Shown here piece by piece: positions 678-62,431 of a DNA stretch of 64,000 nucleotides (positions are counted from its first letter, which is position 1; every line of letters starts with the position of its first letter). This stretch comes from Candidatus Omnitrophota bacterium. GTDB taxonomy: Bacteria > Omnitrophota > Omnitrophia > Omnitrophales > Aquincolibacteriaceae. The translations under genes were made by a program, and so were the position numbers. Under the pieces are notes generated by a model. The model was not told where the DNA came from. It made no database searches and saw nothing but the letters and a program-made list of their open reading frames with translations. The stretch lies in NCBI GenBank assembly GCA_043821445.1, contig JBDRCT010000034.1:2210-66209 (forward strand). The letters are read 5' to 3'.

Positions 678-679
678 CA

Positions 680-8199: not shown

Positions 8200-8203
8200 T
8201 TTT

Positions 8204-8725: not shown

Positions 8726-8773
8726 AAAAGCTCCTTTTGAAATAGTTGAACGGCTTTGAAAAAAGCGGAATAC

Positions 8774-9943: not shown

Positions 9944-10008
9944 AAGATCAAGGTTCCTGCGCTCCGCCGACGGCGAAGTACAGGAAAAGCTCCTAAGGGA
10001 ACGCTGGC

Positions 10009-39964: not shown

Positions 39965-41542
39965 CTAGAAAACCTCGTGGTCCACATCCGGAAAAATATT
40001 GTCCTTCCCTTCCAGTTCCTTGAGCCAGCCCTCATCTAAACGGTTATTCATGAGTTCCTCATAAATCCTCGTGAAATTGAGGAGATGCTCCTTTGTACGT
40101 TTCACGGCATACGGAACCACCGTGCCCGTATGCAGGATAAAAGCCCAGTCACTTGATTGCGCGAGAAAGAGCTCACGTGCAGCCTGTTTGAGCGCCCGGC
40201 CGGCAACTCCGTTCTGCCCCCTGAATTTCTGGGCCATCTCGCTCATGCGCAGTGACGCCTTGTGAAGATGGCGATAGATCCAGTCGTTGGCTCCGGAAAG
40301 CCAAGTCTCGCTGTACCCCTTCCAACCCCAGCTTGAAAAGCACGGCGTGGAAACCTGATTCACAGGATACTCTTTGAAATAATCTGAGGGCGCGATCAAA
40401 CGGAACGTCTTCTGATCAAAGGCGGTCTTACGCACAAAAAAGTTCAGGAACTCCGGGCCTTCATACCACCAATGTCCGTAGAGCTCCGCGTCATAAGGAG
40501 CTACAATGAGGGGCTTCCGGCCCATAAAATCATAAAGATATTCTGCTTGTTTCTCGCGATTAAACATAAAATTTGAGGCATGATTTGCGGCCTTTTGTAT
40601 GGCCCAACCGCGAACGTACGGCTGTTTTTCCTCCGTACTGCCCGTAATGCGGTGATATTTGATGCCGGTGTTAACACGCAGACCGTCGGGAGAAATATAG
40701 GGACGAATATAATCGAAATCCAGTTCAAAACCGATATCGCGATAAAATTCGCGGTAATCCGGATCACCCGGATATCCTTCAATGGCCGACCAGACCTGCT
40801 TGGAAGATTCCACGTCACGGCCGAACGCAGCCACCCCGCTCGGGCAAAAGATCGGTGCGAAAACTCCGTATTTCGGGCGCGGTGAGGCGTGAAGAATGCC
40901 ATGCGTATCGGTCAAAAAGTAGCGGATGCCTTGCTCTTTTAAGTATTTATCCACTCCCGGGTAATAGCCGCATTCGGGAAGCCAAATGCCGATCGGACGA
41001 CGACCGAGCACTTTTTCATAAAGCTCCGTCGCGGTCTTGATCTGACCGCGGACGGTCCCTTCGTTACGGTTGATCAAAGGAAGAAATCCATGGGTGGCTG
41101 CGCAGGTAAGGATTTCAAGATGCCCGTGATCCTGGAATTTCCGGAAAGCCTGCGTAAGGTCCTTGTGATAACGGTTCAAAAACGTGTCCTTCGCGCGCGT
41201 GAATTCCCAGTAATAATGAAGTGCTGTTTCGTGGAACTCGGACTGGAAACGCGTACGATCGATCTCTTTATTGGCCAGCTCGATCATCTTGTCCAAATGC
41301 CGTAGATAGCGATCCTGTAAAAGCTCATCCTGCAACATGGACATCAGCGAAGGCGTCAGGGACATCGTAAGCCGCCAAGGAACATGGTCCCGCTCCAAAC
41401 CTTCGAACATATGGATGAGAGGAATGTAGGTCTCAGTGATGGCTTCGTAAAGCCAGGCTTCTTCTAAGAAATATTCGTGTTCAGGATGGCGGATGAACGG
41501 CAGATGCGCGTGAAGCACTATGGAAAGAAAACCTTTTTCCAT
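39965..41542 (-). CDS. Glycoside hydrolase family 57 protein, probable 1,4-alpha-glucan branching enzyme
   Basis: 525 aa; GH57 N-terminus (FLSIVLHAHLPFIRHPEHEYFLEEAWLYEAITETYIPL) and catalytic region (IGIWLPECGY); clustered with glgC. Confidence 0.85.
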   Translation of the reverse strand: MEKGFLSIVLHAHLPFIRHPEHEYFLEEAWLYEAITETYIPLIHMFEGLERDHVPWRLTMSLTPSLMSMLQDELLQDRYLRHLDKMIELANKEIDRTRFQSEFHETALHYYWEFTRAKDTFLNRYHKDLTQAFRKFQDHGHLEILTCAATHGFLPLINRNEGTVRGQIKTATELYEKVLGRRPIGIWLPECGYYPGVDKYLKEQGIRYFLTDTHGILHASPRPKYGVFAPIFCPSGVAAFGRDVESSKQVWSAIEGYPGDPDYREFYRDIGFELDFDYIRPYISPDGLRVNTGIKYHRITGSTEEKQPYVRGWAIQKAANHASNFMFNREKQAEYLYDFMGRKPLIVAPYDAELYGHWWYEGPEFLNFFVRKTAFDQKTFRLIAPSDYFKEYPVNQVSTPCFSSWGWKGYSETWLSGANDWIYRHLHKASLRMSEMAQKFRGQNGVAGRALKQAARELFLAQSSDWAFILHTGTVVPYAVKRTKEHLLNFTRIYEELMNNRLDEGWLKELEGKDNIFPDVDHEVF

Positions 41543-41544
41543 AG

Positions 41545-42585
41545 TTACGGGTGCTTTCCTGCCTTAATGACAGGCGCGGGCCTTTCTGTGTTGCGGCTCA
41601 CGATCGGGGTAATGACCCTTTCTTCAACGCCGTCCGCGGATTTGGCGTGGCAATCAAAGATGAATTTTCCGTCCGGAAGCCCGTAGCGGAGCGTGAAGGT
41701 GCCGTCCGGCCGTAGCTGAACGGGTCTTCCCTGCATGGTGACCTTGGCATTCGGCTCCGTGCCACCATAAATGATGAGCTCACATTCAAGCCAGAAATGA
41801 AAACCACGTTGTTTGATCCTGACCGGACTGGAAAGGCTGGAAACAGCGCCAGCCCCGGAGCCTGACGTGATCGCGCTCCTGAGGCGTTCTTCCATGAGTC
41901 TGCGGAGTTCGGCAGAACTTTTGCCGACCTGGAACCCCCCCGAAAGGGCGTACATCTTGTCAAAATCGATCGACATCCACTGATCATCAATGATCTCGGA
42001 CATCCCGGACCTTGGCGTAGTCACATGATTGGAGCGGGCAAGGCAGATGAATCGACCGTCACGGTGCAGGAGTCCGATCTCGACGAAATAGCTGCGGTTC
42101 GGCTGGGTGTTGATATACCAACATCTCGCCATATCCTGGAGCACAATATCAGAAAAGGAAGGTGTCTTGCCTTTTTCTGTAACGTCATAGACACGGAGCA
42201 CAGAGACGACATTCTCCAAACTCCCGCCGAGGTTCGCAAGATGATGCCGCTGGTGACCCTCCTGGATCTCCCAGTAGGCATAGATCCAGTACGGATCCCG
42301 AACAAGAAGATAGATCTGATTGTCGCCATAGTTGTCCGGAAGTTCGCCCGGCATCTCCCGATAAGTCCGCGCCTCGACTTCCGGAGGCATGACCCAAGCC
42401 TCAGAATCAGACGCCAGAGGCTGTTTTGGGGAAGGGACCGAAGCAGATCGTTTGATGACGGGGACCCGCTTAAGAGTTGATGCGACCGGCTTGGCCGCAG
42501 TTTTTTTTATGGAGGCGTTGCCGTGCACCTTTTTAGGAGGCTCTTCACTGACTATCCTGGTTTTCTTGCGAGGCGACAAGGCCAT
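41545..42585 (-). CDS. DUF4912-like hypothetical protein (commonly adjacent to GH57 genes)
   Basis: 346 aa; basic, low-complexity N-terminus, then a conserved region (YLLVRDPYWIYAYWEI); the family assignment is by recall only. Confidence 0.45.
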   Translation of the reverse strand: MALSPRKKTRIVSEEPPKKVHGNASIKKTAAKPVASTLKRVPVIKRSASVPSPKQPLASDSEAWVMPPEVEARTYREMPGELPDNYGDNQIYLLVRDPYWIYAYWEIQEGHQRHHLANLGGSLENVVSVLRVYDVTEKGKTPSFSDIVLQDMARCWYINTQPNRSYFVEIGLLHRDGRFICLARSNHVTTPRSGMSEIIDDQWMSIDFDKMYALSGGFQVGKSSAELRRLMEERLRSAITSGSGAGAVSSLSSPVRIKQRGFHFWLECELIIYGGTEPNAKVTMQGRPVQLRPDGTFTLRYGLPDGKFIFDCHAKSADGVEERVITPIVSRNTERPAPVIKAGKHP

Positions 42586-42870: not shown

Positions 42871-43497
42871 TCAAGAAAAATTGAGCTTTTCAAAAAAGAT
42901 CAGGTAAAGAGCAACTAATACAAGCACCCCGGAAGAAATTCGGGACAGAAACGAGTGATTCTCCTCACTCCATCGTTTTAACTTCTTTAAAAAAATGAAC
43001 GCTAGCAGGACGAACCAAAACATAGCGCCGATCAGAAAGCCTCCAAGAAAAAGCTCCTTGAACCACAGCGCACGCGCCTCGGGAAAATGGGTCCTGAGAA
43101 AACCGATAATTCCAACCCACATCAGGAGAACCACGGGATTTGTGATGACTACTAAAAATCCCACGAGGAAATTCTTTGTTGGATTCCTTTTACTGACCTC
43201 CTCGCTCTGCTCGCGAGATTTGCCATGAGCCCAAAAACCACGCGCCGCCAATGACAAGATCACTCCGATCCCGACCCACCGGATAATCCCCCAATATTCC
43301 GGATGGTCCAAAAGAGGCTGCGTACCCGTAAAACCGATCGAAAGAAACATCATATCCGCCAGGATCGCCCCGCAACCTACCAAAAAGGCTGCGGTACGTC
43401 CCCGCTTGAGCCCGCGCTGGATCGCGATCAGATCGATCTGCCAGCCAAAACAGGAAGCCAGAAAACCGGCCAGGATCCCGAGGAACATTAAGTACAC
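42871..43497 (-). CDS. LysE/RhtB-family amino-acid exporter
   Basis: 208 aa; six transmembrane helices; overlaps the pssA 3' end by 10 nt. Confidence 0.75.
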   Translation of the reverse strand: MYLMFLGILAGFLASCFGWQIDLIAIQRGLKRGRTAAFLVGCGAILADMMFLSIGFTGTQPLLDHPEYWGIIRWVGIGVILSLAARGFWAHGKSREQSEEVSKRNPTKNFLVGFLVVITNPVVLLMWVGIIGFLRTHFPEARALWFKELFLGGFLIGAMFWFVLLAFIFLKKLKRWSEENHSFLSRISSGVLVLVALYLIFFEKLNFS

Positions 43498-44228
43498 CCT
43501 CCCGCGTCCGGAGTATCCCCGTCTGAAGCTTTACGAAATGATACGCAGTAGAACGGGGAAAGTACAATGAATGTCAAAAAGATCGCGGCGATTGCACTTT
43601 CAATATTGAGATAGAAAAATACCGCGAAAAACACAGCCACCTGCACGACGAACAAAGTCCGCCAGGAACGGAACTTGATGGCCGAAACCTTCGGGTAAGG
43701 AATATCACTTGCCATGAGAAAGCCAAGCGCTGTCATCAGAAATACTTCGCTGATCAGGGAGAGAGATCGATCGGCCCACAGGTTCTTGTGAAAAGCCAGT
43801 ATGGTCATCATAAGCGTCAGGCCCGCAGCCGGCGTCGGAAGTCCTTCGAAATGCCCTCCGTGGACCGGATTTACGTTAAACCGTGCTAGACGAAAAATGC
43901 CGGCACAGAGATAGAACACGATGACCAAAAGAAGCGCCATGGGCGAATTCTGAAAAAAAGCCTTGTAGACGAGCATGCAAGGAGCTACCACGAAAGAAAC
44001 CGCGTCGGCCAGCGAATCCAGTTCGCGGCCAAATTCCGTTTCATTTCCGAAGATCCGGGCCACATGACCGTCCAAGGAATCGAGGATAAGGGCGAGAAAA
44101 ACAAGCCAGACGGCAAATTCATATCTTTCCTGAACGCTCATCAAGATCGAAAAAAAACCCGAAACGAGATTGAGCATCGTGATCATGTTGGGAAAGGCGG
44201 CACTCGTAAAATAAAAACGTTTCTTCAT
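43488..44228 (-). CDS. pssA: CDP-alcohol phosphatidyltransferase, probable phosphatidylserine synthase
   Basis: Motif D-x2-DG-x2-AR-x8-G-x3-D-x3-D (DSLDGHVARIFGNETEFGRELDSLADAV); membrane protein; directly downstream of psd. Confidence 0.75.
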   Translation of the reverse strand: MKKRFYFTSAAFPNMITMLNLVSGFFSILMSVQERYEFAVWLVFLALILDSLDGHVARIFGNETEFGRELDSLADAVSFVVAPCMLVYKAFFQNSPMALLLVIVFYLCAGIFRLARFNVNPVHGGHFEGLPTPAAGLTLMMTILAFHKNLWADRSLSLISEVFLMTALGFLMASDIPYPKVSAIKFRSWRTLFVVQVAVFFAVFFYLNIESAIAAIFLTFIVLSPFYCVSFRKASDGDTPDAGGCT

Positions 44229-44231
44229 CTC

Positions 44232-44879
44232 TTAGCCCTCCTCAATCCACGCTCCAAGGAGCGTCCTTCCGCCGGTGACATGCTGTCCGACCCGGATATC
44301 CGCCCGGAACATCCGTTGTGGGACATAGATCTCGACCCCGGACCCATAGCAAATCACGCCAAGCTTTTCCCCGCGCCCCATGACCTGTCCGATGGTTACG
44401 TCAGAGTAGATGCGCCGCGCGATCGCACCGGCCAGTTGACGCACCAGGACCCGCCGTGCGCGGTTCTCGATACAGATCCAGTTGGATTCGTTATGGTCGA
44501 AAGCATCCTTGCGCAACGCGTTTAAAAACTTCCCCTTTACGTAATTCTGATATTTAACGATGCCCGCCAAAGGCGCGCGTGTGGTATGCACGTCAAAGAT
44601 CGAAAGAAAGATACGGATACGCACCGCCTGCTCATGGAGAAATTTATCTTCAAATATCTCGTCAATTTTGACCACCGTCCCGTCCGCAGGCGCAAGAGGC
44701 CCCTGTTCTCTCGGAGACTCCCGTTGGGGATCCCTGAAAAAAAGAAGCTGTGCCACAAGAAGAAACACAAGCACGGAAGCCGCGTACGGAATGGGCCAAA
44801 ACCTTTCCACAATGAGGAGGACGCCTAAAAACATGACGCCGGGCCACACCCGCCTGTCGAGAGGAATCCTATGCGTCAT
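44232..44879 (-). CDS. psd: Phosphatidylserine decarboxylase-family protein (short, archaeal-like form)
   Basis: Start at MTHRIPLDRRVW (ATG 44879, ATGA overlap with the upstream radical-SAM gene); N-terminal transmembrane helix; conserved YGSGVE region near the C-terminus. Confidence 0.65.
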   Translation of the reverse strand: MTHRIPLDRRVWPGVMFLGVLLIVERFWPIPYAASVLVFLLVAQLLFFRDPQRESPREQGPLAPADGTVVKIDEIFEDKFLHEQAVRIRIFLSIFDVHTTRAPLAGIVKYQNYVKGKFLNALRKDAFDHNESNWICIENRARRVLVRQLAGAIARRIYSDVTIGQVMGRGEKLGVICYGSGVEIYVPQRMFRADIRVGQHVTGGRTLLGAWIEEG

Positions 44880-46492
44880 AATGCGGCCACCGGAACTCCC
44901 TCCGCTTTTGCAAGTCGGGAACCTGCGTCCATGGATCCATCCGCATCTTCGAAAGGCGGTTTCTTGGGATCCTGGCCTTCCGGGATCCCCTGAGTTTCGG
45001 TCACATATTTGCGAAAGGCCCGGTGTGTCGCGATCCAACGGAAAAATTCCAGCCACTTGCTCACGGAAAAAGGTCCCCCCTTGGCGACACGCCAGAAGGT
45101 TCCGGAAAAAAATCTCATGCGCTCCAGATCCCATGTGAAGAGATAGTAAACTAAAAGTTTGAACAAAAGATAAGTAAATTTAAAGTCCAGAGACGCCCGC
45201 TTGTGCTCCGGATTGAGATTCCTGAAACGGCTCAAGGCCGTTACCAACCGGTCCCCGTAACTGTCATAGCGATAAAGACATCGGCTCAGCCAGTTGTAAC
45301 CCTGGTGGAGCTCTTCAAGGGTCATGTTCTTCGGAACGAAGTTGCAATCGGAGGAGCCATGCCCATTCATCTCAGTCCACTCCAGATCCAAGAGGCGACC
45401 TTCTGCTTCCAGCCGCCTGATCAGGGGCGTGTTGGGGAGCGCCATAAGCGTCCCGCAGGTCGTGAACGGGATCCCAAGCTCCTGCAGGAAGTCATAATGT
45501 TCTTTGAATATTTTTTTATCATCCGCATCGAACCCTACGATCATCCCGGCCACCACAGTTATGTGATAGGAATGGATGCGTTTGATATCCTCCAGGACAT
45601 TCTCACGCGTGTTCTGCACCTTGCCCGACTCCACAAGGCTCTCGCGGCGCGGCGTTTCGATCCCGACGAAGACCGAATAAAAATTCGCGGCCTGAAGCAG
45701 TTCCAGAAGATCGGGATGGTGAGCCACATTGATCGTCAACTCGCAGGAGAATTCTATGGGGTAACCGTTCTCTTTTGAATAATCCGCCAGCGCCGTAAGA
45801 AGCTCCCTGGCGAAAGGGATATTGCCGATGAAATTCGCGTCACCAAAAACAATATAGTGCGCGCCCTGTTTCACACAATGATCCACTTCCGCAAGCACTT
45901 GCGGAATGGTCTTCGTGCGCGGCACACGTCCGTCCATCACGATAATGTCGCAGAATTCACAATTAAAAGGACAGCCCCGGCTTGTTTGGAGCGAGAACAT
46001 ATTGTACCGGTCCCCACGGATAAGGTTATAGCGCGGAGCCGGACTTTTACGGATGTCCGCCTTGGCAACGGCCTTGTAAAGTTCCCGGGTTGTCCCATGC
46101 TCAAAATCACGGAGGAATTCGGGCCAGATCTCCTCAGCCTCTCCCACAATGCGGTAGTCGCACTTCCCCTCGAACGCCTCAGGGAAAAGACTGTTGTAAG
46201 GCCCGCCGACGGCGATCTTTTTCCCGCGTTTCTTGAACTCCTCAATGATCTCAAGCGACCGGTGATACTGGACATTAAAAGCGCTGATTGCGATCAAGTC
46301 TGCGGAATTTTCAAAATTAATGTCCTCGACATTTTCGTCGGCGATTTCGACTTCCCAGGGCTCAGGCGTAAGGGCAGCAACGGTGGCAAGACCGAGAGGC
46401 GTGGTAGAAAAACGGGTCCCGGTGAGCGGCTGGAGCCCCTCAAAAGACCATATGGTCGGTTGGAAACGAGGATTGATCAGATAGACTTTCAC
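44876..46492 (-). CDS. Cobalamin-binding (class B) radical SAM protein with DUF4070-like C-terminus
   Basis: 538 aa; N-terminal B12-binding Rossmann-like region (LIAISAF...IAVGGPY); radical-SAM cluster motif CPFNCEFC; long C-terminal extension. Confidence 0.85.
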   Translation of the reverse strand: MKVYLINPRFQPTIWSFEGLQPLTGTRFSTTPLGLATVAALTPEPWEVEIADENVEDINFENSADLIAISAFNVQYHRSLEIIEEFKKRGKKIAVGGPYNSLFPEAFEGKCDYRIVGEAEEIWPEFLRDFEHGTTRELYKAVAKADIRKSPAPRYNLIRGDRYNMFSLQTSRGCPFNCEFCDIIVMDGRVPRTKTIPQVLAEVDHCVKQGAHYIVFGDANFIGNIPFARELLTALADYSKENGYPIEFSCELTINVAHHPDLLELLQAANFYSVFVGIETPRRESLVESGKVQNTRENVLEDIKRIHSYHITVVAGMIVGFDADDKKIFKEHYDFLQELGIPFTTCGTLMALPNTPLIRRLEAEGRLLDLEWTEMNGHGSSDCNFVPKNMTLEELHQGYNWLSRCLYRYDSYGDRLVTALSRFRNLNPEHKRASLDFKFTYLLFKLLVYYLFTWDLERMRFFSGTFWRVAKGGPFSVSKWLEFFRWIATHRAFRKYVTETQGIPEGQDPKKPPFEDADGSMDAGSRLAKAEGVPVAAL

Positions 46493-46540
46493 GATCGGCT
46501 TGTGCTTTCTCTCATGGGAATTGTCGCCATGAACATATTT

Positions 46541-47140
46541 TTAATGCTTGCGTAAAAAAATCCCGGAAATGAGTATGGAAAGCATGAATCGGGCAAACAA
46601 GACCGCCTCCTCGATCGTCGCGAGAAAAACACGGATATAGTTGATCCTCAGCACATCTCCTCGTCGGCAGGAGACTTTGACATTTTCCCAAAATCTCTGG
46701 AGGGGTTCACGCGTGGAAGTCAGACGGAGCGAAAAAAGGTTCAGCTTGTCCACCCATATCTGGAACCGCGAAGGGATCCGGAACCGGTAAATATTCTTTT
46801 TCTCAAGCGCTGCAGCGGCTTTCTGATAAAGATGCAAAAGCTCAGAGGTCCGGAGGTCCCGCCATTCTTTCGCGCATTGGGTCAAGCGAATGATCTCGGA
46901 GACCACTTTCTCTTCAAGCGGACTACGACGGCGGGTCGCAAGCCAGACTTCTTCAAGCTCGAGCGTCAGCTTGTACCAACCTTTTATGGAGTGCAAAACG
47001 TCAGAGAATCTCCGCTTGAAATAGACCCAACGCTTCTCGATCGGATAGCCTGTCCGGCGTTCCAAACGTCCCTTCAAGCGAAAAAACCCACTGATCATGG
47101 GATGACCCCCTTCGACATCGATGGAATTCTTGTACCACAT
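46541..47140 (-). CDS. Hypothetical protein between the two radical-SAM genes
   Basis: 199 aa; basic/aromatic-rich; hydrophobic C-terminus (VFLATIEEAVLFARFMLSILISGIFL); no known motif. Confidence 0.4.
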   Translation of the reverse strand: MWYKNSIDVEGGHPMISGFFRLKGRLERRTGYPIEKRWVYFKRRFSDVLHSIKGWYKLTLELEEVWLATRRRSPLEEKVVSEIIRLTQCAKEWRDLRTSELLHLYQKAAAALEKKNIYRFRIPSRFQIWVDKLNLFSLRLTSTREPLQRFWENVKVSCRRGDVLRINYIRVFLATIEEAVLFARFMLSILISGIFLRKH

Positions 47141-47165
47141 GAAATTCGAGAAGATCCCCCAATAG

Positions 47166-48632
47166 TTATCCCCCTTGAGGTCCCCGGGCCAGGATCCTTT
47201 TCATGTTCTCGGTGCTATAGAAAGTCTGCCACGCATCTTCGTAAGCCGTGAGCCATTCCCCAGGCTTCATCCTCGGATGACGGTGCGTTTCATGGAACGT
47301 ATCATAATTATTAAGGTCCGCATCCATCAACATCTCTTTTTCCAAAGCTCTTTTGTAGTCCATGGAGCCCGGAAGCGGTGTCATCATGAAAAATGAAGCC
47401 TGTCCTGCGCCAAACGACATCAGCTTTTCGACATCCTGTTTGACGGACTCGACCGTGTCCAAGGGAAACCCGATGATGTAGGCCAAGTGGCACACAACAT
47501 CCACTTCGTGAAAAGCATCTACCAGTTTTTTAAAGTTTTCAATGTCATTCTGGTTCTTCTTTGCCGCTTTAAGATTTTCCTGATTCAAACTTTCGATGCC
47601 GATAAAGACCTGCCGGCAACCGGCCCGGGCCGCTTTCTCCACAAAATTAGGTACGAGATACGCCTGGGTATCCAACTGCATCATGTAGTGGAATGGGATC
47701 CCCTCTTTTTCTTTGAGTTCGATCACCCGGTCCAGTATCTCCTCCCAGTATTTGTTGCGGCAGAAATTATCATCCGTGAAAAAATAATGGGAGATCTGAT
47801 GCTGACGGTAATCTCTCCGGAATGTCTCGATCAAAAGGTCCACATCACGGAAACGCATCTTGCGGCCCTGAACATTAATGACGGTGCAGAAGTTGCATCC
47901 GAAGGGGCATCCCCGGCCGCAGTCAAGCGTTCCAAAATGCTCCAGCGCGTAATGGGTCTGATGTTTGGGATTGATGCGTGGAAAGGGGGCTTTGGAAATA
48001 TCCGGGATATCCTTTAAAAAATTATAAACGGGTTTGAGCCGGTCATGGATGGCATCGCTCAGCACCTGCTCCCAGTGCCCTCCCTCGGCTTCACCCGCCG
48101 TGAGGCTCACGCCGGCATTACGAAGCGTTACAAGTTCCGGGGAAAGATCGGGCAGGGTCGCCATGACGCCGCTCACATGAAAACCGCCCACCAAAACGTC
48201 GATCCCGGCCTGGCGGAACTTCATCGCAATATCCGAAGCCCGCGGCATTTGATTGGATTGGACCCCCACGAGACAGATCACGGTCTTGGTCCTGATCTGA
48301 CGACTTTCCCTTATGATCTTTCTATAGGGAATTCCCTGCACCGTATCGTCAATGAGGGTGATCTCCCAAGCCAGGTCCCTGCCCAACACACCGCGATCCC
48401 GGGCGTCTTCGCTCAACCCATTCAGGCAGGAAAGTGTATTGCTGGGAAGAACGCCCTTCCAATAGCGGATCAAATACCCCTCATCATCATATTTGGAGGG
48501 TTTGATCAGAAAAAGATGGAAACGTTTGTATTTGTGGGGACTCACTCGGAGGGACCCCTTACCTTGGGCCTCAAAAAAGGTCTCCAAAGAACAGCAAGGC
48601 GCAGGAGATTTTGGATTTTCGCAAATCTTCAT
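47166..48632 (-). CDS. Cobalamin-binding (class B) radical SAM protein, paralog
   Basis: 488 aa; B12-binding region (ICLVGVQSN...DVLVGGFH); radical-SAM motif CGRGCPFGCNFC. Confidence 0.85.
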   Translation of the reverse strand: MKICENPKSPAPCCSLETFFEAQGKGSLRVSPHKYKRFHLFLIKPSKYDDEGYLIRYWKGVLPSNTLSCLNGLSEDARDRGVLGRDLAWEITLIDDTVQGIPYRKIIRESRQIRTKTVICLVGVQSNQMPRASDIAMKFRQAGIDVLVGGFHVSGVMATLPDLSPELVTLRNAGVSLTAGEAEGGHWEQVLSDAIHDRLKPVYNFLKDIPDISKAPFPRINPKHQTHYALEHFGTLDCGRGCPFGCNFCTVINVQGRKMRFRDVDLLIETFRRDYRQHQISHYFFTDDNFCRNKYWEEILDRVIELKEKEGIPFHYMMQLDTQAYLVPNFVEKAARAGCRQVFIGIESLNQENLKAAKKNQNDIENFKKLVDAFHEVDVVCHLAYIIGFPLDTVESVKQDVEKLMSFGAGQASFFMMTPLPGSMDYKRALEKEMLMDADLNNYDTFHETHRHPRMKPGEWLTAYEDAWQTFYSTENMKRILARGPQGG

Positions 48633-48679
48633 GGGGAATAATTATACTCTATCTTTAGGATAACTGCTAGAAATGGTTT

Positions 48680-50095
48680 TTAGAGGTTCGAGAGCTGGAG
48701 ACTGGAAACAGAAATTCTGCTCTGGCGAATACAATCCGTGATGCCAAATCCGTGGAATCCATTTCCCGTAAAAAAAAGACCGGGATATTGAAAACCTTTT
48801 TTTTCGATCCGCTTCACACGATCAAAATGTCCCGTCTCATATTGGGGCAACGCGCTAGGATAGCGTTCAATATCGATAAGCAGCGGCTTGGCATGAACGC
48901 CAAAAAAATCACTCATAAAAGTCTGCATCCTTTGTTTGACTAGTGCGTCATTCTCATGAAAGACCTTGGGAAGCATTGTTTCGGACAGAAATGCGCGCAT
49001 CAAAAGGTGTTTTCCATCCGAGCTCTTACCGAGCCATTTAAAACTTGAAAAAGGACACCGCTCACCCCCCATGGGCACCAGGAATCCGAAATCCGGACCT
49101 TGAGCCAGTACATCCCCGGCCTTGTAAATAAGATTCACCGCCGCGATCGAATCGTATCGTACAGTTGAAAGTGCCAGGGAAAGTTCGGGAGCGGTTGTAA
49201 AAAGCAATTTCGAAGCATCGCAAGCGTTCATGGCAAAACCCAAGATGTCTGCGCACAATAGGGTGCCATCCTCCATAAAAATTTCCCAACCCGCGTTGTA
49301 AGCACACTGCCGGACAGGCGAGGACCTTCGCAACTCACACCTCCCTAATTCCCGCACAAGCGCGTGAACTAGTCCTTCAAGGCCCTGCCTCAAAGTAAGA
49401 AATTCTGCCGGAACCTTTTCTTTTCTCCAGCTTGTCTTGTTCAGAAAAGATCCGGCAAGACTTCCATGAGTCTTCTCGACTTGCCGCAGCCTTGGGAATA
49501 GAGCTTCCAGACTCAACCGCTCGGGATTCATCATGCAAACGCCTTGCGCCAATGGTTTTACGACTTCTTGGTAGAAGCCTTGCCCAAGACGCCGGCGAAT
49601 AAAACTCGCGAGACTTTCATCTCCATCTTCCTTCCGACGCGGAATGAACGGCTCTCCAAGCATCCGGCATTTCCCAAAAAAACTCAACCGAGGGCTATTA
49701 AGAAAACGAAAGACATCGGAAAAGGATCCAGAAAGACCTGGAATAGGATAAAGCTGTTTATTTTTCAGGCCAAAAAAACGCCGGAAGCATGGGGATGCCT
49801 CGATCACATCTTCCTGAAGACCCAGCTTGCGACAAAGGTCCAGGGTGTCATTTTGACCGGCATAGAAAGCATCCGCTCCGGCTTCCATGTGAAGGCTTTC
49901 GTGTGTCAGCGTACGAAGCACCCCACCCAAACGGTTTGAGGCTTCGAGTACGGTGATCCTAAGGGGAAAATGCTCTTCTGCGGCTCTCCGGGAAAGGAAA
50001 AAAGCGGAGCTAAGGCCTGAAATACCACCCCCGATGATCACCGCGTGGCGTCCAAGTCTTGGATTTCTTTTTTGAACGTTGACTTGAACTGTCAT
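48680..50095 (-). CDS. FAD-dependent oxidoreductase, protoporphyrinogen-oxidase / phytoene-desaturase (HemY/CrtI)-like
   Basis: 471 aa; dinucleotide motif VIIGGGISGLSSAF...VLEASNRLGGV; C-terminus FTGNGFHGFGITDCI typical of the amine-oxidase superfamily. Confidence 0.7.
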   Translation of the reverse strand: MTVQVNVQKRNPRLGRHAVIIGGGISGLSSAFFLSRRAAEEHFPLRITVLEASNRLGGVLRTLTHESLHMEAGADAFYAGQNDTLDLCRKLGLQEDVIEASPCFRRFFGLKNKQLYPIPGLSGSFSDVFRFLNSPRLSFFGKCRMLGEPFIPRRKEDGDESLASFIRRRLGQGFYQEVVKPLAQGVCMMNPERLSLEALFPRLRQVEKTHGSLAGSFLNKTSWRKEKVPAEFLTLRQGLEGLVHALVRELGRCELRRSSPVRQCAYNAGWEIFMEDGTLLCADILGFAMNACDASKLLFTTAPELSLALSTVRYDSIAAVNLIYKAGDVLAQGPDFGFLVPMGGERCPFSSFKWLGKSSDGKHLLMRAFLSETMLPKVFHENDALVKQRMQTFMSDFFGVHAKPLLIDIERYPSALPQYETGHFDRVKRIEKKGFQYPGLFFTGNGFHGFGITDCIRQSRISVSSLQLSNL

Positions 50096-50170: not shown

Positions 50171-51100
50171 TTAATTCTCTTGGACAAGGATGGTAAAGAT
50201 CTTGCGGGTCGGAGCCGTTTTGGTCTCCCACGGCCGCTTGTAGACAAAATCAGCCTTGGTCTCGCCGGGAATCATGGCCTTGAATCTGTAAACATCTTCA
50301 CCCGGCACGCCTGGCATCACTTCCTGCGATGTGACGTGGTCGGACCCCAAAAGCTTAACCGTCCTCTGCTCTTCCGGCAAAGTCATTTTCCAGAGAAATC
50401 CGGTCGAAGGATTGCTGCCCAAAACAATCGAAAATTCTTCCCCCGGCGGAACTTTGATAGGAACACCTGGATCTCGAAACACCAAGGGCTGGATCCCCGT
50501 TGACACTGCAGAATCGGACATTGCGGTCGGGGGCGTATCGTTTGTTTCGACCGGCATCGTCGAAGCCTGGTCAGGAGTCTGAGAAACAGCACTCTCATCG
50601 GGAAGTGACGCAGCTTCCTTCATTTCCTCGGGAACAACAACATCCATCGTGATTGGATCGCTCCAAAGAGGCTCCGCGATATCGCCATCCTCGCTCATGC
50701 GTTGGAACCCGAGCCGGAAGGTGACCGGTTCGGTCTTATCTTTGTTAGGGATATAGAGGATGATGTTCTTTTCATAAACATCACCGGGGTCAAGCGTGAT
50801 TTGTTCGAGAGTGTTTTCGTTGCAGGTCCAGGACTGAATAAGCACCTCGGCATTATCCGTGACCCAATGCTTTTCATAGGAGCAACTATTGCTCCAAAAT
50901 TCGACCGAGGTATCGGAGCTTGAATTTGTGACCTGCACATGGACAAGGAACATCATCCCGACTTTAACGGAATTCTGATCGGGAAGCACCTGGATCTTGA
51001 GGAGCGAGTCCTCAGCCCAAACGGTCGGGCCGAAAGGGCAGAGAGAGAAAAAAACGGGGAAAAGGAAAACGAAAGAAAATAAAAAAGGGTTCCTTCTCAT
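50171..51100 (-). CDS. Secreted protein with C-terminal chagasin-like (I42) peptidase-inhibitor domain
   Basis: Signal peptide MRRNPFLFSFVFLFPVFFSLCPFGPTVWA; S/T/P-rich linker; C-terminal NPSTGFLW...GVPGEDVYRFKA matches the chagasin NPTTGY.W motif. Confidence 0.55.
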   Translation of the reverse strand: MRRNPFLFSFVFLFPVFFSLCPFGPTVWAEDSLLKIQVLPDQNSVKVGMMFLVHVQVTNSSSDTSVEFWSNSCSYEKHWVTDNAEVLIQSWTCNENTLEQITLDPGDVYEKNIILYIPNKDKTEPVTFRLGFQRMSEDGDIAEPLWSDPITMDVVVPEEMKEAASLPDESAVSQTPDQASTMPVETNDTPPTAMSDSAVSTGIQPLVFRDPGVPIKVPPGEEFSIVLGSNPSTGFLWKMTLPEEQRTVKLLGSDHVTSQEVMPGVPGEDVYRFKAMIPGETKADFVYKRPWETKTAPTRKIFTILVQEN

Positions 51101-51108
51101 CGCACAGA

Positions 51109-51333
51109 TCAGTTGACCTTCACAAAGGGATATTGGGTCTTGATATATTTTTGAAAAAAAATCCCGTGCGAGGGGGCGGCCATGAGCCCGTGATAAACGC
51201 TTTCGGGCACTTCTTGGAAGCGATAGACACCGCCCGCGCGAAATACGACCTCCAGGATCGATGTCACGTTATCATAACCGATCAGCGCGAGATCGCGCGA
51301 CTGTACAGGTTTTATATCCATTTCCTTCACCAT
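51109..51333 (-). CDS. KTSC-domain protein
   Basis: 74 aa; LIGYDNVTSILEVVFRAGGVYRFQEVPESVYHGLMAAPSHG matches the KTSC consensus as I recall it. Confidence 0.6.
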   Translation of the reverse strand: MVKEMDIKPVQSRDLALIGYDNVTSILEVVFRAGGVYRFQEVPESVYHGLMAAPSHGIFFQKYIKTQYPFVKVN

Positions 51334-51348
51334 AAAAGCACCTCTCCG

Positions 51349-51798
51349 TTAGACCCGGGAAGCCAGCTCCCGCAGGGCTTCCTCAAACTCTTGGTATTTT
51401 TCCAGGATCACATCCCGGGCCGGTCGAAAACTCCCATCCTGGAACTTAAAAAGAATGATGTTGTTTCCAAAAAGCGACCGGTAGCAATGCTTCCTCGCCC
51501 AATCCTCCGGCTTTTCGTTACGGTAATTCGTCATCAAATACACTAACCCGAAAGGATACGCAGCCTGAGCTGTATAATCGATCCCTTCAAACCGGACTAC
51601 AATGGGCGCTGTCCGAAAATAATTCAAAAGACAGATCATTTTGGAAAGATCGTTCCCGGGTTTTTTAAGAAATTCTTCAAACGCCTGGGACTGCGCCACG
51701 GGCTCAAGCCCGTCCGCACCCAGGACTATCGGAACTACTCCCAAAAAAACAATGCTCAAAGAGAAAGACAAAACAACTCCGCTCAAGAATTTCCGCAT
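51349..51798 (-). CDS. Secreted hypothetical protein
   Basis: 149 aa; signal peptide MRKFLSGVVLSFSLSIVFLGVVPIVLGA. Confidence 0.4.
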   Translation of the reverse strand: MRKFLSGVVLSFSLSIVFLGVVPIVLGADGLEPVAQSQAFEEFLKKPGNDLSKMICLLNYFRTAPIVVRFEGIDYTAQAAYPFGLVYLMTNYRNEKPEDWARKHCYRSLFGNNIILFKFQDGSFRPARDVILEKYQEFEEALRELASRV

Positions 51799-56893: not shown

Positions 56894-57433
56894 TTAAAAT
56901 TCAATCCCTTGTTGGGCGGGAGTACCACGATCGAAGGGGTGCTTTACGCATCTCATCTCGGTCACAAGGTCCGCTAGATGAATGATCGCCTGAGGCGCGC
57001 CTCTGCCGGTCAGGATCACGTGTTGACCGGACCGTTTGCGCCTGAGCGCTTTGACCACATCGAAGGCCTTGAGGAATTTGTACCGGAGGGCAATATGGAT
57101 CTCATCGAAAATGACGAGGTCATATTTCGGATCTTTCAGAAGTTCGCAACATTTCTTCCATGCCTTCTGAACGGCCTTGGTATTCTCTTCACGCGCCACG
57201 CGCCACGTAAATCCACCGCCAAAACTCCAGACGCGGAACCGGCCCGCGAATTTTTTCAAAGCACGGAACGCGCCTTCTTTATCCAAAGCCTTGCTTTGGA
57301 CGGGATATTTGAAGAATTGGACCACTCCCACTCGTCCGCCATGTCCCAAGATCCGTAGCGCCATGCCAAGCGCGGCAGTCGTCTTTCCTTTGCCGTTGCC
57401 TGTATAAACCTGGACCAAACCCTGGGTCTTCAC
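56894..57433 (-). CDS. cobO: Cob(I)yrinic acid a,c-diamide adenosyltransferase (CobA/BtuR type)
   Basis: 179 aa; P-loop VYTGNGKGKTTAALG and VIFDEI motif. Confidence 0.85.
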   Translation of the reverse strand: MKTQGLVQVYTGNGKGKTTAALGMALRILGHGGRVGVVQFFKYPVQSKALDKEGAFRALKKFAGRFRVWSFGGGFTWRVAREENTKAVQKAWKKCCELLKDPKYDLVIFDEIHIALRYKFLKAFDVVKALRRKRSGQHVILTGRGAPQAIIHLADLVTEMRCVKHPFDRGTPAQQGIEF

Positions 57434-58230
57434 CTTCCCTCCCTTTGATCGAGATCATCCGCTAAAGGCAGAATGAACGGTTTCATGGAGACCGGATTTT
57501 TTCCGGCCGAAACGCGCGCTCCGAATACCGATTCGATCGTCGCGCGTTCCAGTACCTCTTCAGGAGTGCCTATCATATGAATACGCCCGCGATCCATCAA
57601 GAGCATCTTGCGAGCGTACTCCGCAGCAAGGTTGAGGTCGTGTAGAACAGCCACCACGGTCAGGTGCCTTGCGCGATTAAGCCGGGCCAGAAGCCCGAGT
57701 ACCGTCACTTGATGCGCGATGTCTAAATGCGCGGTGGGCTCATCCAGAAAAAGCCATTCGGGTTCTTGGGCAAGGGCACGCGCGATCGCGGCCAGCTGCC
57801 GCTCCCCACCGCTTGTTTCTGTCATCAACCGGTTCCGTAAATGATCTATGCCGGCTTTTCGCATCACTTGATCGGCGATCTCAAGATCCGCCGCTGTTTC
57901 CAGGAACTGGAAGTCCCCGTAATGCGGGATACGCCCCAAAAGCACGAATTCTTCTATCGTCATTGGAATGGCCGGGACATTTTGTGACACGACCGCACAG
58001 CGTTTGGCGAAATGCTTCGGCAAAATACTCCAGAGGTTCTTTCCCTCGAAAAGAACCTCCCCGTGCGAAGGCGGAAGCGATCGGGTCAACGCCCGAACGA
58101 GCGTGGTCTTTCCGGAACCATTGGGACCGAGAATGGCAAAAAAATCGCCGCGATCGATCCCGAGATCGATCCCCTCCAGGACCATCTTTTTCCCGTACCC
58201 ACAGCTGAGTCCGTTCGCCGTGAGCGTCAT
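57430..58230 (-). CDS. btuD: ABC transporter ATP-binding protein, iron-siderophore/cobalamin family (FecE/BtuD-like)
   Basis: Start at MTLTANGLSCGYG (ATG 58230, ATGA overlap with the permease stop); Walker A GPNGSGKTTL; signature SGGERQ; Walker B LFLDEPT. Confidence 0.85.
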   Translation of the reverse strand: MTLTANGLSCGYGKKMVLEGIDLGIDRGDFFAILGPNGSGKTTLVRALTRSLPPSHGEVLFEGKNLWSILPKHFAKRCAVVSQNVPAIPMTIEEFVLLGRIPHYGDFQFLETAADLEIADQVMRKAGIDHLRNRLMTETSGGERQLAAIARALAQEPEWLFLDEPTAHLDIAHQVTVLGLLARLNRARHLTVVAVLHDLNLAAEYARKMLLMDRGRIHMIGTPEEVLERATIESVFGARVSAGKNPVSMKPFILPLADDLDQREGR

Positions 58231-59246
58231 AGAGGTTTGCCCTTTCCGCGCACGAGGACATAAATAAAAAGACATCCGCCTAAAAGCCCTGTCACAACCC
58301 CGACCGGAAGCTCTACGGGAGCGATCAGAATGCGGGCCACTGTATCGCAAAGCACAAGAAAAGTTCCGCCTCCAACAAAGGAGGTCATCAAGAGTATCCT
58401 GGCATCGCGACCCACAAGCCCCCTCATCATATGCGGTACGACAAGCCCGACAAATCCGATCACACCCGCCACCGCCACGCTCACTCCCGTCAGCACCGAA
58501 GCGATTACAAAAAGGGCGCGTTTGGTCCGCTCGACCGGGATCCCGAGATGACGCGCTTCTTCTTCTCCAAGGGCAAGCGCGTTCAGATCCGCGTGGAAGA
58601 GATAACAACTCCCGAGACCGAGCACCGAGACCGCGATCATGATACGGATCAATGCCGGGTCCGGCTCGTCAAGGGATCCCATGATCCAGAAAAGAATGCC
58701 TTGAAGATCTTCGGTCCGCGAAACGGCAAGAATGAGCAGCATGAGCGATGACGAGATAAAGGTCAACATCACACCCGTGAGCAACATCCCTTGAAGGGGA
58801 AGCTCCCGCCCACGGCGGCTTAAAAAATAAAGCAAAAAGATCACAAGGCAAGCGCCCAGGAATCCGGAAAACGGAAGGCCGAGATGCCAAACCCCGGAAA
58901 GCCCCCAGAGAATATTGAGCGACACCCCGACCGCGGCACCTCCCGAAATCCCGAGTGTATAGGGTTCGACCAAAGGGTTTCTGAACATCCCTTGCAGGAT
59001 CACGCCCGCAAGGCTCAAGGCGCCCCCGACGGCAAACCCCAAGAGAAGCCTCGGAAAACGGATGTCCCAAATGATACGGCCTTCGATGCTATCCGGAGGC
59101 CTGGAAAGGAGTTCGATCACTTTTCTGGCCGGAATGCCGGAGGAGCCTGAGATCAAAGCAAGGATCGCGGCCGCGATCGCCGCAAGCACGATCAAGCCAA
59201 GCCAACCCAGCCAACGTCTTGAACGATTATGAAGCATAGCTCGCAT
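58227..59246 (-). CDS. btuC: FecCD-family ABC permease (BtuC-like)
   Basis: 339 aa; about 9 transmembrane helices; FecCD signature region. Confidence 0.85.
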   Translation of the reverse strand: MRAMLHNRSRRWLGWLGLIVLAAIAAAILALISGSSGIPARKVIELLSRPPDSIEGRIIWDIRFPRLLLGFAVGGALSLAGVILQGMFRNPLVEPYTLGISGGAAVGVSLNILWGLSGVWHLGLPFSGFLGACLVIFLLYFLSRRGRELPLQGMLLTGVMLTFISSSLMLLILAVSRTEDLQGILFWIMGSLDEPDPALIRIMIAVSVLGLGSCYLFHADLNALALGEEEARHLGIPVERTKRALFVIASVLTGVSVAVAGVIGFVGLVVPHMMRGLVGRDARILLMTSFVGGGTFLVLCDTVARILIAPVELPVGVVTGLLGGCLFIYVLVRGKGKPL

Positions 59247-59353
59247 GGACCCCGTTAGAGACAGGAAGCGCTTTTATCGCTTCCGTGATTTATTGAAAAA
59301 TTTGACACTAATTTCATTTTTTCGTTTCTTGTAGAAAAATTTGAATTGCTTCA

Positions 59354-60202
59354 TCAATTTCTAACGGGGTGGAGGATTTGGATCATATTCTCAAGGGCCC
59401 GGGTGAAGGTCACGGGGGTCGGAGAACAGAAGAGGTCAGAATTGACGATCACAATGCGGTTTTCACGGGCCGCCTTGAGTTCGGGATATTGTTGCCACAT
59501 TTGCTTTTCCTTTTCCCCGTCAAATCCCATGCTCGAGATGATGATCATGTCGGGATTTTGCGCGAGCACTTTTTCCCGGGAATAAAGCGCCCGTTTTCCG
59601 TCCGCCGCAATGTTCTTCCCGCCCGCAAATTCGATCAGATCGTTCAAAAAGGAATCCCGCGTCACTGTCACAAGCGGTTCAGCACCTATCTCGAGAAATA
59701 CCAAAAGGACCGGACCTTGCGGGACTTTCTCCCGCAGCAACTTAACCGCCTTTTCCTGTTCTTCCGAAATGCGCACAGCCTCAGCTTCTTTGCCGATCAT
59801 CCGCGCAAGACGAAGAAAGGACCCGCTAATTCCTTTAAAATTTTTTGCAGGCGCAAACGTTTCCACATGAAGCCCGAGGGCTCGCATTTTGGCGACAGAG
59901 CGAGGATCGATCATCGGGGTTACGATTACAAGATCGGGGTCAAGAGATACGATCTTCTCGAGATTGGCATCGACGATATTCCCGACTTCAGGGATCTCTT
60001 GAGCTTCGACGGGCCGTACGCAAAAGTGCGATCTCCCGACCAAACGCTTCGCCTCGCCCAGGAGGAATATCTCTTCGGTCACCACGGTCGAAAGCGAGAC
60101 AATACGCTGAGGGGATCTTTCTTCGGCAGAAACACGGCCTGGAAGGATCATGAGGAAGGCTATCGCCCAGAGGATCGTGACCCGTCCCTGTTTGTAGTTC
60201 AC
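59354..60202 (-). CDS. btuF: Periplasmic cobalamin/iron-siderophore binding protein (BtuF-like)
   Basis: 282 aa; signal peptide; RIVSLSTVVTEEIFLLG...DLVIV pattern of the class III substrate-binding-protein fold. Confidence 0.75.
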   Translation of the reverse strand: MNYKQGRVTILWAIAFLMILPGRVSAEERSPQRIVSLSTVVTEEIFLLGEAKRLVGRSHFCVRPVEAQEIPEVGNIVDANLEKIVSLDPDLVIVTPMIDPRSVAKMRALGLHVETFAPAKNFKGISGSFLRLARMIGKEAEAVRISEEQEKAVKLLREKVPQGPVLLVFLEIGAEPLVTVTRDSFLNDLIEFAGGKNIAADGKRALYSREKVLAQNPDMIIISSMGFDGEKEKQMWQQYPELKAARENRIVIVNSDLFCSPTPVTFTRALENMIQILHPVRN

Positions 60203-60861
60203 ACGAGGCTCCCAAGCTCAAGTTTTGAAACCCAATGTTTTTCGATCGAAAGCCTCTCGGACTCATGGACCGATACGGGAGTTTTAAAGATCGGCCCGTC
60301 GTAGACGAACGTATGATACTCGCCCTTTTCACCGCACGGATCGACATGCGGCACGGTCCTTATCTTCCCCGGAAAATCCCGGTCGATCTCGCAGCCTAGC
60401 CATTCAGCGCCAAGTACCACTTCGTCCGTCACTACGATACGGCTTTTAAAACCCGCAGCGATGAATTCTTCGAGCAAAAGCTCCCGCTTTTCGTTCCAAA
60501 GCGGCAAGAAAGCTTTAAGCCCCGTCTCACGGCAGACCCGCTCGACCCATTCCCGGTGCGGCTCAAGATCAATATCGCCGAAGATCCCGGCTTCCACGCC
60601 TTTTGTTTTCAGTTCCGTCAACACCGACTTGAATTCCTTTTCGTAATCCTTCCAGGATGCGGCGCGTTGAATGAGCGGGACCCCGATCGCTGCCGCCTGG
60701 GCGCGCAGTACCGCTGCGCTCAGCCCGTGAGAACGCGAGTACTCACCGTCCTCGGTCATCATGTTCACTAGATGCGACACCTCAATCTCCGGATGTTTCA
60801 TCATCCGGTAACACGCAAGTACGCTGTCTTTACCCCCGCTCCAGGAAACAAAGACTTTCAT
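60199..60861 (-). CDS. PP-loop ATP pyrophosphatase of the MJ0570/Dph6-like family
   Basis: Start at MKVFVSWSGGKDS (PP-loop SGGKDS); ATGA-type overlaps with both neighbours. Confidence 0.55.
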   Translation of the reverse strand: MKVFVSWSGGKDSVLACYRMMKHPEIEVSHLVNMMTEDGEYSRSHGLSAAVLRAQAAAIGVPLIQRAASWKDYEKEFKSVLTELKTKGVEAGIFGDIDLEPHREWVERVCRETGLKAFLPLWNEKRELLLEEFIAAGFKSRIVVTDEVVLGAEWLGCEIDRDFPGKIRTVPHVDPCGEKGEYHTFVYDGPIFKTPVSVHESERLSIEKHWVSKLELGSLV

Positions 60862-61826: not shown

Positions 61827-61828
61827 TT

Positions 61829-62431
61829 TTACTGGTCCGCTAATTTAAAAGTGACCGGCGTTTCTACGATGTCTTTGATCGGTTGATCGTTCTTGAGCGC
61901 CGGCTGGAATTTCCATTTTTTTATGGATTCACGGGCCGCTTCATCCAAAAGCTCGTGCCCTGAAGACTGTACGAACTCCATATGACCGACAGAGCCATCG
62001 GGAAGAACCTCGTAGGCCAGCACTACTCGTCCTTCCCATCCCCGCCGGATCGCTTTCCGCGGATAAGGCACCGCTTCCGGGACCGAAACCAACAAAGGCG
62101 GCGTCAAACCACTTGGGGCCGTTTCTTCATCCGATCGACGGCTTTCAAGACGATTCCGATCCGCACTTTGTCCCTGGCGAAAGATAGAGGGACCAACTTG
62201 ATTTCCCGTAAATCCCGCAGCCACGAACCTTGAAGATCGTGCGAACTGCTTCGGCCCCGCAGTCATGTGTTCCGGAGTTTTCACTTTCACGTTCACAGGA
62301 ATACCTTGCGAGATCACGGGCCCTGTTTCGACCGAGGGCCAGGCGCCGACATTTTCCTGTGCTTTAAGACGAACCCCGAAGAGAACCGCTAAGAGTGCGC
62401 TTACATAGATGATTTTTAACCGTTTCTTCAT
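61829..62431 (-). CDS. tonB: Energy transducer TonB
   Basis: Start at MKKRLKIIYVSALLAVLFG (transmembrane anchor); C-terminal TonB domain (PYPRKAIRRGWEGRVVLAYEVLPDGSV). Confidence 0.7.
   Translation of the reverse strand: MKKRLKIIYVSALLAVLFGVRLKAQENVGAWPSVETGPVISQGIPVNVKVKTPEHMTAGPKQFARSSRFVAAGFTGNQVGPSIFRQGQSADRNRLESRRSDEETAPSGLTPPLLVSVPEAVPYPRKAIRRGWEGRVVLAYEVLPDGSVGHMEFVQSSGHELLDEAARESIKKWKFQPALKNDQPIKDIVETPVTFKLADQ

Follow-up and report, generated by a model that had tools for sequence, protein, structure and literature searches.

Does a run of closely packed genes that places two radical S-adenosylmethionine (radical-SAM) enzymes beside phosphatidylserine decarboxylase and synthase form one pathway for tailoring phospholipids? 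The question is raised by positions 42871-50095 of a 64,000-nucleotide stretch, here called the window, from a Candidatus Omnitrophota bacterium (GenBank assembly GCA_043821445.1, contig JBDRCT010000034.1). The original prediction, made from the sequence alone, was that a HemY/CrtI-like flavoprotein and two cobalamin-binding radical-SAM enzymes belong to a dedicated operon for the phosphatidylethanolamine (PE) branch of membrane lipid synthesis, with the flavoprotein acting as a desaturase. Neither the identity of the flavoprotein nor the gene order in relatives supports such an operon. On balance, we instead favor a reading in which a HemY unit and an ordinary psd-pssA-LysE operon flank two class-B radical-SAM enzymes, both uncharacterised and probably modifiers of fatty-acyl-derived chains. 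On this reading, the three units are probably co-transcribed in the window's lineage without forming a conserved functional module.

According to the open reading frames (ORFs) of the window and their translations, all seven ORFs of the region lie on the minus strand. In the direction of transcription they encode a HemY-family FAD oxidase of the protoporphyrinogen/coproporphyrinogen oxidase type (48680-50095, 471 residues), the first radical-SAM protein, here called rSAM-A (46541-48632, two ORFs), the second, rSAM-B (44876-46492, 538 residues), a short-type phosphatidylserine decarboxylase, Psd (44232-44879), the CDP-diacylglycerol--serine O-phosphatidyltransferase PssA (43488-44228), and a LysE-family membrane protein (42871-43497). 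The predicted coordinates and common strand are thus correct, but the count of seven genes is not, as there are six genes and one of them is frameshifted. This gene is rSAM-A, of about 695 residues, which appears as a 5' ORF of 488 residues with the radical-SAM domain (47166-48632) and a 3' ORF of 199 residues (46541-47140). The 3' ORF had been taken for a separate gene of unknown function; it is the C-terminal domain of rSAM-A, the orthologue of which is a single ORF of about 655-716 residues in every relative. Relatives' loci carry L numbers; scanning genomes and metagenomes supplied 29 of those from Omnitrophota, and exact look-ups added others. The 488-residue ORF aligns to residues 20-476 of the orthologue (694-696 residues) and the 199-residue ORF to residues 492-687, and DNA alignment to three orthologous loci (L096, L003 and L004) locates the frameshift to a G-run with one extra G at 47182-47185. 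Downstream of this site the sequence is otherwise intact; the frameshift arose either during assembly, as an error, or by a mutation that must be very recent.

Homologues of every region protein searched were found in Candidatus Omnitrophota metagenome-assembled genomes (MAGs), and their gene order separates the units. Within the clade in which rSAM-B is at least 80% identical, rSAM-A, rSAM-B, psd, pssA, the LysE gene, a DUF4912 gene and a GH57 glucan branching enzyme gene are always kept, and about 20 unrelated genes are syntenic as well, including folD, panB, a GGDEF protein gene and glycogen genes. Because the synteny of this clade also spans folD, panB, the GGDEF protein and the GH57 branching enzyme, the adjacency of psd is uninformative there. 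Two arrangements occur. Type I (the window, L003, L096 and L166-L168) runs from BtuFCD-like genes and CobO through ACT, FTCD_C, FolD, PanB, GGDEF, small genes and an I42 lipoprotein to HemY and then the block, and Type II (L004, L099 and L101) is without the whole ACT-to-HemY segment, such that CobO is directly followed by rSAM-A. At 57-78% rSAM-B identity, psd and pssA are never adjacent, which holds for at least 12 loci (L001, L002, L007, L085-L092, L097 and L169-L171). The rSAM-A/rSAM-B pair is kept in L001 and L006, where it is followed by ilvD and, in L006, psd-pssA-LysE lies 5.5 kb upstream; other loci outside the clade have rSAM-B without rSAM-A. The adjacency is therefore confined to one broadly syntenic clade and is not conserved in relatives, which largely undoes the predicted coupling to PE synthesis and to the flavoprotein. 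A lineage-specific linkage to psd does not place the substrate of the radical-SAM pair in the PE branch.

The flavoprotein was described as HemY/CrtI-like, and the HemY part of this description holds. It reaches 199.9 bits with the protoporphyrinogen oxidase model TIGR00562 (cut-off 97.85) over residues 16-465 of 471, matches PF01593 with 105 bits, and is 100% identical to an NCBI protein named protoporphyrinogen oxidase from Ca. Omnitrophota. The CrtI part does not hold, as CrtI/CrtD models match only the FAD-binding N-terminus (residues 17-74) with 16-21 bits against cut-offs of 550-640. HemY adjoins rSAM-A only in the Type I genomes of one syntenic clade, where it is widespread. There is no HemY beside rSAM-A in L004, L099 and L101, and in L166 an opposite-strand response regulator lies between the two. 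In the distant lineage of L172, where HemY is 42% identical, it keeps its upstream partners and is followed by a cation-efflux gene, with no radical-SAM genes. Since HemY is separated from rSAM-A in L166, is missing beside it in Type II genomes and keeps its partners in L172, it belongs to another unit, and a role as the desaturase of the radical-SAM system is not supported. The upstream partners are a protein of about 148 residues, a 74-residue KTSC-domain protein and a further protein (window 50171-51798; L172:232-1547; L166-L168 at about 8100-9970), the last being a chagasin-I42 inhibitor lipoprotein in the window and L166-L168, and a 203-residue protein without a Pfam match in L172. HemY would be grouped with these proteins. 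Its sequence changes at a much higher rate (53-82% identity) than those of the neighbouring genes (80-97%), and no heme-pathway genes lie near it.

The close packing that suggested one operon is real. Gaps between the region's genes are at most 50 nucleotides (nt) or ATGA overlaps, and the stop codon of rSAM-B overlaps the psd start at 44876-44879, an overlap also seen in L096 and L166-L168. Because of these short gaps and the overlap, the radical-SAM pair and psd-pssA-LysE are probably co-transcribed in the window's lineage. However, the minus strand carries 56 of the 63 window ORFs of at least 100 residues, and 28 of 55 same-strand junctions in the window are 50 nt or shorter (median 48). 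Since strand bias and short junctions prevail throughout the window, short gaps and co-directionality are weak evidence for an operon. No intrinsic-terminator-like sites were found in the intergenic gaps of the region, the whole terminator and promoter scan being at the level of shuffled sequence. Furthermore, the minus strand accounts for 93% of the coding bases in the window, and GC skew is negative uniformly along positions 1-64000. The region is at present mainly cautionary, in that adjacency in a compact and strand-biased genome can mimic an operon.

The assignments of the three downstream genes to the PS_Dcarbxylase, CDP-OH_P_transf and LysE families were borne out by Pfam. Psd scores 111.8 bits with PF02666 (cut-off 22) and 130-192 bits with NCBIfam Psd models, PssA scores 137.2 bits with TIGR00473 (cut-off 107) and 79 bits with PF01066 and shows the motif DG(x)2AR...G(x)3D(x)3D in its translation, and the LysE-family protein scores 77.7 bits with PF01810. 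L006 (L006:463-2462) likewise has the order psd-pssA-LysE, with proteins 44-51% identical and at a distance from its radical-SAM genes. As the LysE-family gene is the third gene after psd-pssA even in distant Omnitrophota, its position suggests a role tied to phosphatidylserine (PS) and PE synthesis, such as serine/ethanolamine handling or lipid translocation, and not general amino-acid export. Together, the three genes would constitute a PE synthesis operon. The 285-nt gap after the LysE gene carries the sole good sigma-70-like match (42772-42744), in a scan that overall is at shuffle level. The genes that come next (39965-42585) encode the DUF4912 protein and the GH57 branching enzyme, which are 91-97% identical across the clade; in relatives the latter is followed by an alpha-amylase-family protein and glycogen phosphorylase.

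What, then, are the two radical-SAM proteins? Both are of class-B type, as predicted, with a cobalamin-type Rossmann domain followed by a radical-SAM barrel according to Pfam, hhalign and AlphaFold2 (AF2)/Foldseek, and both carry the expected cysteine motifs. The barrel of rSAM-A matches PF04055 with 62.4 bits and contains the motif CPFGCNFC, in which C242, C246 and C249 of CX3CX2C are invariant across the family. Pfam gave no match to a B12-binding domain in rSAM-A. Its N-terminus aligns to the B12 domain of rSAM-B with an hhalign probability of 97.5%, and the best Foldseek matches of its AF2 model (pLDDT 74) are TokK, TsrM, AprD4, CysS and MgmA, the methyl-coenzyme M reductase (MCR) glutamine methylase. 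The last approximately 200 residues form a helical domain without a Pfam family, ending in one hydrophobic helix (residues 668-695, Kyte-Doolittle hydropathy 2.0) that looks like a membrane tail anchor. A divergent DUF4070 was considered for this C-terminal domain and rejected at an hhalign probability of only 0.1%. In rSAM-B, Pfam recognises PF02310 (46.2 bits, cut-off 32.1), PF04055 (70.9 bits) and PF13282 (DUF4070, 47.1 bits), in agreement with the predicted DUF4070 tail. Here the motif is CPFNCEFC, with C174, C178 and C181 of CX3CX2C invariant across the family.

Within Omnitrophota, conservation of either family is strong, at 55-93% identity (57-93% for the rSAM-B subfamily), and all named matches among the 120 best for each protein are from this phylum. 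In a 50%-identity library, the best representatives of rSAM-A are mostly 33-55% identical, and rSAM-B has relatives at 37-49% identity in many phyla; an exact look-up of the window's rSAM-B sequence gave no match. The families proposed as possible relatives, HpnR, BchE and Tes, were compared with the pair. With the HpnR model TIGR04367, rSAM-A scores 46.3 and rSAM-B 29.7 bits against a cut-off of 650, and with the BchE model TIGR02026 the values are 61.7 and 23.8 bits against 481. The model TIGR04072 (lipid biosynthesis B12-binding/radical SAM) gives 58.2 and 68.9 bits against 360. Tes was absent from the PDB sequence matches at E ≤0.01 and from the 50 best Foldseek matches of the rSAM-A model, and PDB sequence searches with both proteins matched only generic class-B enzymes. 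The literature on DUF4070, on methylases of branched glycerol dialkyl glycerol tetraethers, and on LuxC/LuxE with B12 radical SAM yielded no characterised relative.

The surroundings of rSAM-B orthologues lend support of another kind to a lipid role. In L171 (10001-20602), the genes that come after rSAM-B, with gaps of at most 12 nt or overlaps, encode a SAM methyltransferase (nearest family DVU_1556), an acyl carrier protein (ACP), an AcpS-like protein, a weakly FabZ-like protein, two FabF-type ketosynthases and a thioester reductase; a HpnB/CruG-like GT2 glycosyltransferase and an MMPL/HAE3 exporter come next. The same order is kept through GT2 in L086 (9947-19448; L093 is a duplicate), where the partner proteins are 39-66% identical and the fetched stretch gave no MMPL match. 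Because this order is kept at only 39-66% partner identity, the rSAM-B operon appears to be under selection rather than a product of residual synteny. In L007 (1-7168 and 10001-11608), two ketosynthases, a reductase, a fatty-acid desaturase, GT2 and MMPL lie within 8 kb of rSAM-B, together with a DedA/VTT protein and a second MMPL. Thus, at least three divergent lineages of Omnitrophota have rSAM-B next to a lipid cluster, and in two of these it heads a tight operon. Further loci have MlaC-GT2-MMPL near rSAM-B (L089), an MMPL transporter about 2 kb away (L097), serA upstream and an AsmA-like protein downstream (L090 and L094), or an LPG-synthase-type gene nearby (L170 and L088). As an observation apart, giant ORFs of 1,395 to more than 3,700 residues flank several loci (L005 at about 1-7700, L167:20537-21386, L168:20576-21386 and L097:16098-20285), in line with a report of very long proteins in Omnitrophota (bioRxiv 10.64898/2026.06.07.730766).

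Ladderane clusters as called by antiSMASH have been reported in Omnitrophota MAGs (PMC9902471), and the operon of rSAM-B, ACP and ketosynthases is probably what antiSMASH calls by this name. The thioester reductase and MMPL exporter suggest a reduced, probably glycosylated and exported lipid, and from the gene content the product is likely a long-chain one. When the genes around 80 rSAM-B-family loci of other phyla were clustered, no universal partner emerged. A paralogous B12 radical-SAM/DUF4070 subclade, 42-47% identical to rSAM-B, was found by tblastn of neighbourhoods in Myxococcota, Spirochaetales, Gammaproteobacteria and metagenomes, and its cluster consists of a LuxE-like acyl-protein synthetase, a LuxC acyl-CoA reductase, the radical-SAM gene, Rrf2 and sufBCDS (L022:4648-14368, L024:8617-17008 and L103:6157-11521; also L052, L106, L107, L110, L113, L114, L155 and L029). 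The predicted lipid substrate is therefore plausible, but by way of the ACP/ketosynthase clusters of rSAM-B orthologues and the tail anchor of rSAM-A, which formed no part of the original argument.

Circumstantially, a cobalamin requirement of the pair would fit the corrinoid uptake-cobO locus, which in sister genomes directly abuts rSAM-A. The presence of this locus had been noted correctly, but it lies upstream in the direction of transcription and not downstream. It occupies 56894-64000 on the minus strand, with genes for a TonB-dependent receptor, TonB, two inserted genes, a periplasmic binding protein, a FecCD permease and an ABC ATPase at 57430-64000 (Pfam) and, as the last gene, the CobO/BtuR corrinoid adenosyltransferase at 56894-57433 (PF02572, 198 bits). 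In L101, L099 and L004, a cobalamin riboswitch (Rfam), receptor, TonB, BtuFCD-like genes and CobO are followed by rSAM-A, after 47-149 nt, and rSAM-B. The riboswitches (L004:2050-2240 and 4961-5076, L099:1599-1783 and L101:1336-1549) precede the TonB receptor or BtuF-like genes. Rfam found no cobalamin riboswitch in the window, where the receptor gene runs past 64000 and a leader would lie outside. In the window and at five other loci a 7-kb block comes between cobO and rSAM-A, and distant lineages do not have the two genes side by side. The B12 link does not identify the substrate of the pair. The two inserted genes of the window (60199-61826), Asn_synthase-like (PP-loop ATPase type) and Diphthami_syn_2, lie between TonB and the periplasmic binding protein and are not in that position in L101.

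If the pair does act on acyl chains, rSAM-B would use 5'-deoxyadenosyl radical chemistry and cobalamin to modify an unactivated carbon in a chain of fatty-acyl origin, whether bound to ACP or already part of a lipid. C-methylation would be the likeliest reaction, as for most class-B members, with C-C bond or ring formation as the alternative. The membrane-anchored rSAM-A might carry out a related step on a membrane-resident lipid.

How well does this account stand against other explanations? That everything from the flavoprotein to the LysE gene forms one operon for tailoring PS/PE-branch lipids, with desaturation by the flavoprotein and methylation, cyclisation or cross-linking by the radical-SAM pair, is improbable. 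The tight packing and the ATGA overlap, the absence of rearrangement between rSAM-B and psd in 13 clade loci, and the anammox and Desulfotalea lipid clusters, which also pair two radical-SAM genes with PF01593 flavoproteins (PMC2649909), speak for it. However, the flavoprotein passes the HemY and not the CrtI cut-off and is not beside rSAM-A in L004, L099 and L101, a gene on the opposite strand intervenes in L166, and in L172 HemY leads to a cation-efflux gene. Additionally, clade synteny spans unrelated genes, short same-strand gaps are normal in the window, and psd/pssA are not next to rSAM-B in the at least 12 loci at 57-78% identity. A role of the pair in remodelling or maturing corrinoids, for example by a BzaD/BzaE-like lower-ligand methylation, is very unlikely. 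BzaD and BzaE are two adjacent class-B radical-SAM paralogues, and in L101, L099 and L004 the pair comes directly after the riboswitch-led uptake-cobO locus. However, the adjacency to cobO is lost in the window, in five further loci and in distant lineages, no bzaA/B/F, cobT or bzaC lies nearby, and a membrane tail anchor would be unexpected for benzimidazole chemistry. With the BzaD model TIGR04385 the two proteins reach no more than 37 and 20 bits, where the cut-off is 450, and on these scores BzaD/BzaE-type remodelling was rejected.

We regard it as possible, if doubtful, that the pair has nothing to do with lipids and modifies a soluble cofactor, peptide or RNA, the lipid neighbourhoods being coincidental synteny. 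Class-B radical-SAM enzymes act on very diverse substrates (PMC12931638), no characterised family was matched, several rSAM-A and rSAM-B loci have no lipid genes nearby, and two or three clusters account for most of the rough excess of lipid genes around rSAM-B. On the other hand, L171 and L086 share the overlapping run of rSAM-B, methyltransferase, ACP, AcpS, two ketosynthases and reductase despite the divergence of the partners, rSAM-A carries the membrane anchor, and LuxC/LuxE acyl reductase/synthetase genes accompany a separate subclade. Several observations do weigh against the three-unit reading with an acyl-modifying pair. Neither rSAM-A nor rSAM-B reaches an NCBIfam equivalog (HpnR, HpnJ, BchE, TIGR04072, PhpK and BzaD are all far below cut-off), no characterised homologue fixes the substrate, and the AF2 model of rSAM-B (pLDDT 49) is too poor for a fold search. 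Relatives of rSAM-A outside the clade (about 45% identity, P0243 and P0245) are solitary in unrelated contexts, lipid-related genes are lacking at about half of the distant rSAM-B loci (L169, L085, L092, L001 and L006), and the window's 64 kb gave no match to a ketosynthase or ACP. Finally, the 13 clade loci keep rSAM-B and psd together though breakpoints occur just upstream of rSAM-A, and a real functional tie of the pair to PE synthesis may exist in the window's clade. Collectively, we still prefer three units with a pair that probably modifies fatty-acyl chains. A further-reaching proposal, which we consider unlikely, is that the two proteins are a new oxygen-independent B12 radical-SAM pair installing methyl branches, rings or cross-links on the fatty-acyl or alkyl chains in Omnitrophota membrane lipids. 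According to this proposal, the substrates of rSAM-B would be chains bound to ACP or released by the reductase in a dedicated ketosynthase/reductase/glycosyltransferase/MMPL pathway, and those of rSAM-A would be phospholipids in the membrane; in the window's lineage the pair would have been recruited into the PE operon and would depend on scavenged B12.

Omnitrophota are abundant, uncultivated nanobacteria, and both radical-SAM families are candidates for anaerobic lipid-chain modification. The two families appear widespread in the phylum and are tied to B12 scavenging, and rSAM-B also to operons of ACP, ketosynthase, reductase and exporter genes. An assigned function would help in interpreting branched or modified lipid biomarkers of anoxic environments and would be the first for the ladderane-like clusters flagged by genome mining in many non-anammox phyla. 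If true, chain branching or cross-linking might account for branched-lipid biomarkers of anoxic settings that are so far unassigned.

Among known systems, the best sequence and fold matches of the pair are TokK, TsrM, CysS, the MCR glutamine methylase (9CCB), AprD4 and OxsB, which share the Rossmann cobalamin domain and partial TIM barrel with CX3CX2C. However, identity is 14-18%, their substrates are antibiotics or proteins, and none has the C-terminal helical domain and tail anchor of rSAM-A. The hopanoid methylases HpnP/HpnR and the "HpnP-like" proteins (PMC10697835) have the B12, radical-SAM and DUF4070 architecture seen in rSAM-B, and characterised HpnP/HpnR members methylate membrane lipids at unactivated carbons. 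They differ in that hopanoid genes are not present here and the C-terminal domain of rSAM-A is not DUF4070. Tetraether-lipid enzymes (Tes, Mss, GrsA/B, Gms/Hbs and Gmm/Hgm) also apply radical-SAM chemistry to inert lipid chains, some of them with B12. Homologues of Mss and Hbs are reported in some Omnitrophota MAGs, Mss in only 15 of 267 (PMC11868695), whereas matches to rSAM-A and rSAM-B are far more numerous, which is an argument from frequency and not from sequence comparison.

The closest described analogue of the rSAM-B operons is the ladderane-like type II fatty-acid synthesis (FASII) cluster, which is biochemically unassigned (PMC13459092). The gene combination had been considered undescribed, yet a bioinformatic description from 2009 provides a precedent: the unusual FASII clusters of anammox bacteria and Desulfotalea contain two radical-SAM genes, PF01593 flavoproteins, methyltransferases, a glycosyltransferase, FabF paralogues and ACP (Rattray et al., 2009; PMC2649909). 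Ladderane-like clusters share with the window two adjacent radical-SAM genes and a PF01593 flavoprotein, and with the L171 and L086 operons a B12 radical-SAM gene together with a methyltransferase, ACP, a FabZ-like protein, paired FabF-type ketosynthases and a glycosyltransferase. In contrast to those clusters, the window's proteins are below the TIGR04072 cut-off and no ACP or ketosynthase genes accompany them, the PF01593 protein is of the HemY family and is not conserved with the radical-SAM pair, and a thioester reductase closes the Omnitrophota operons, near an MMPL exporter in the case of L171 and L007. Class-B enzymes linked to lipid genes were thus already known, and what the Omnitrophota loci appear to add, as judged by sequence comparison, is two uncharacterised class-B radical-SAM subfamilies in a new arrangement.

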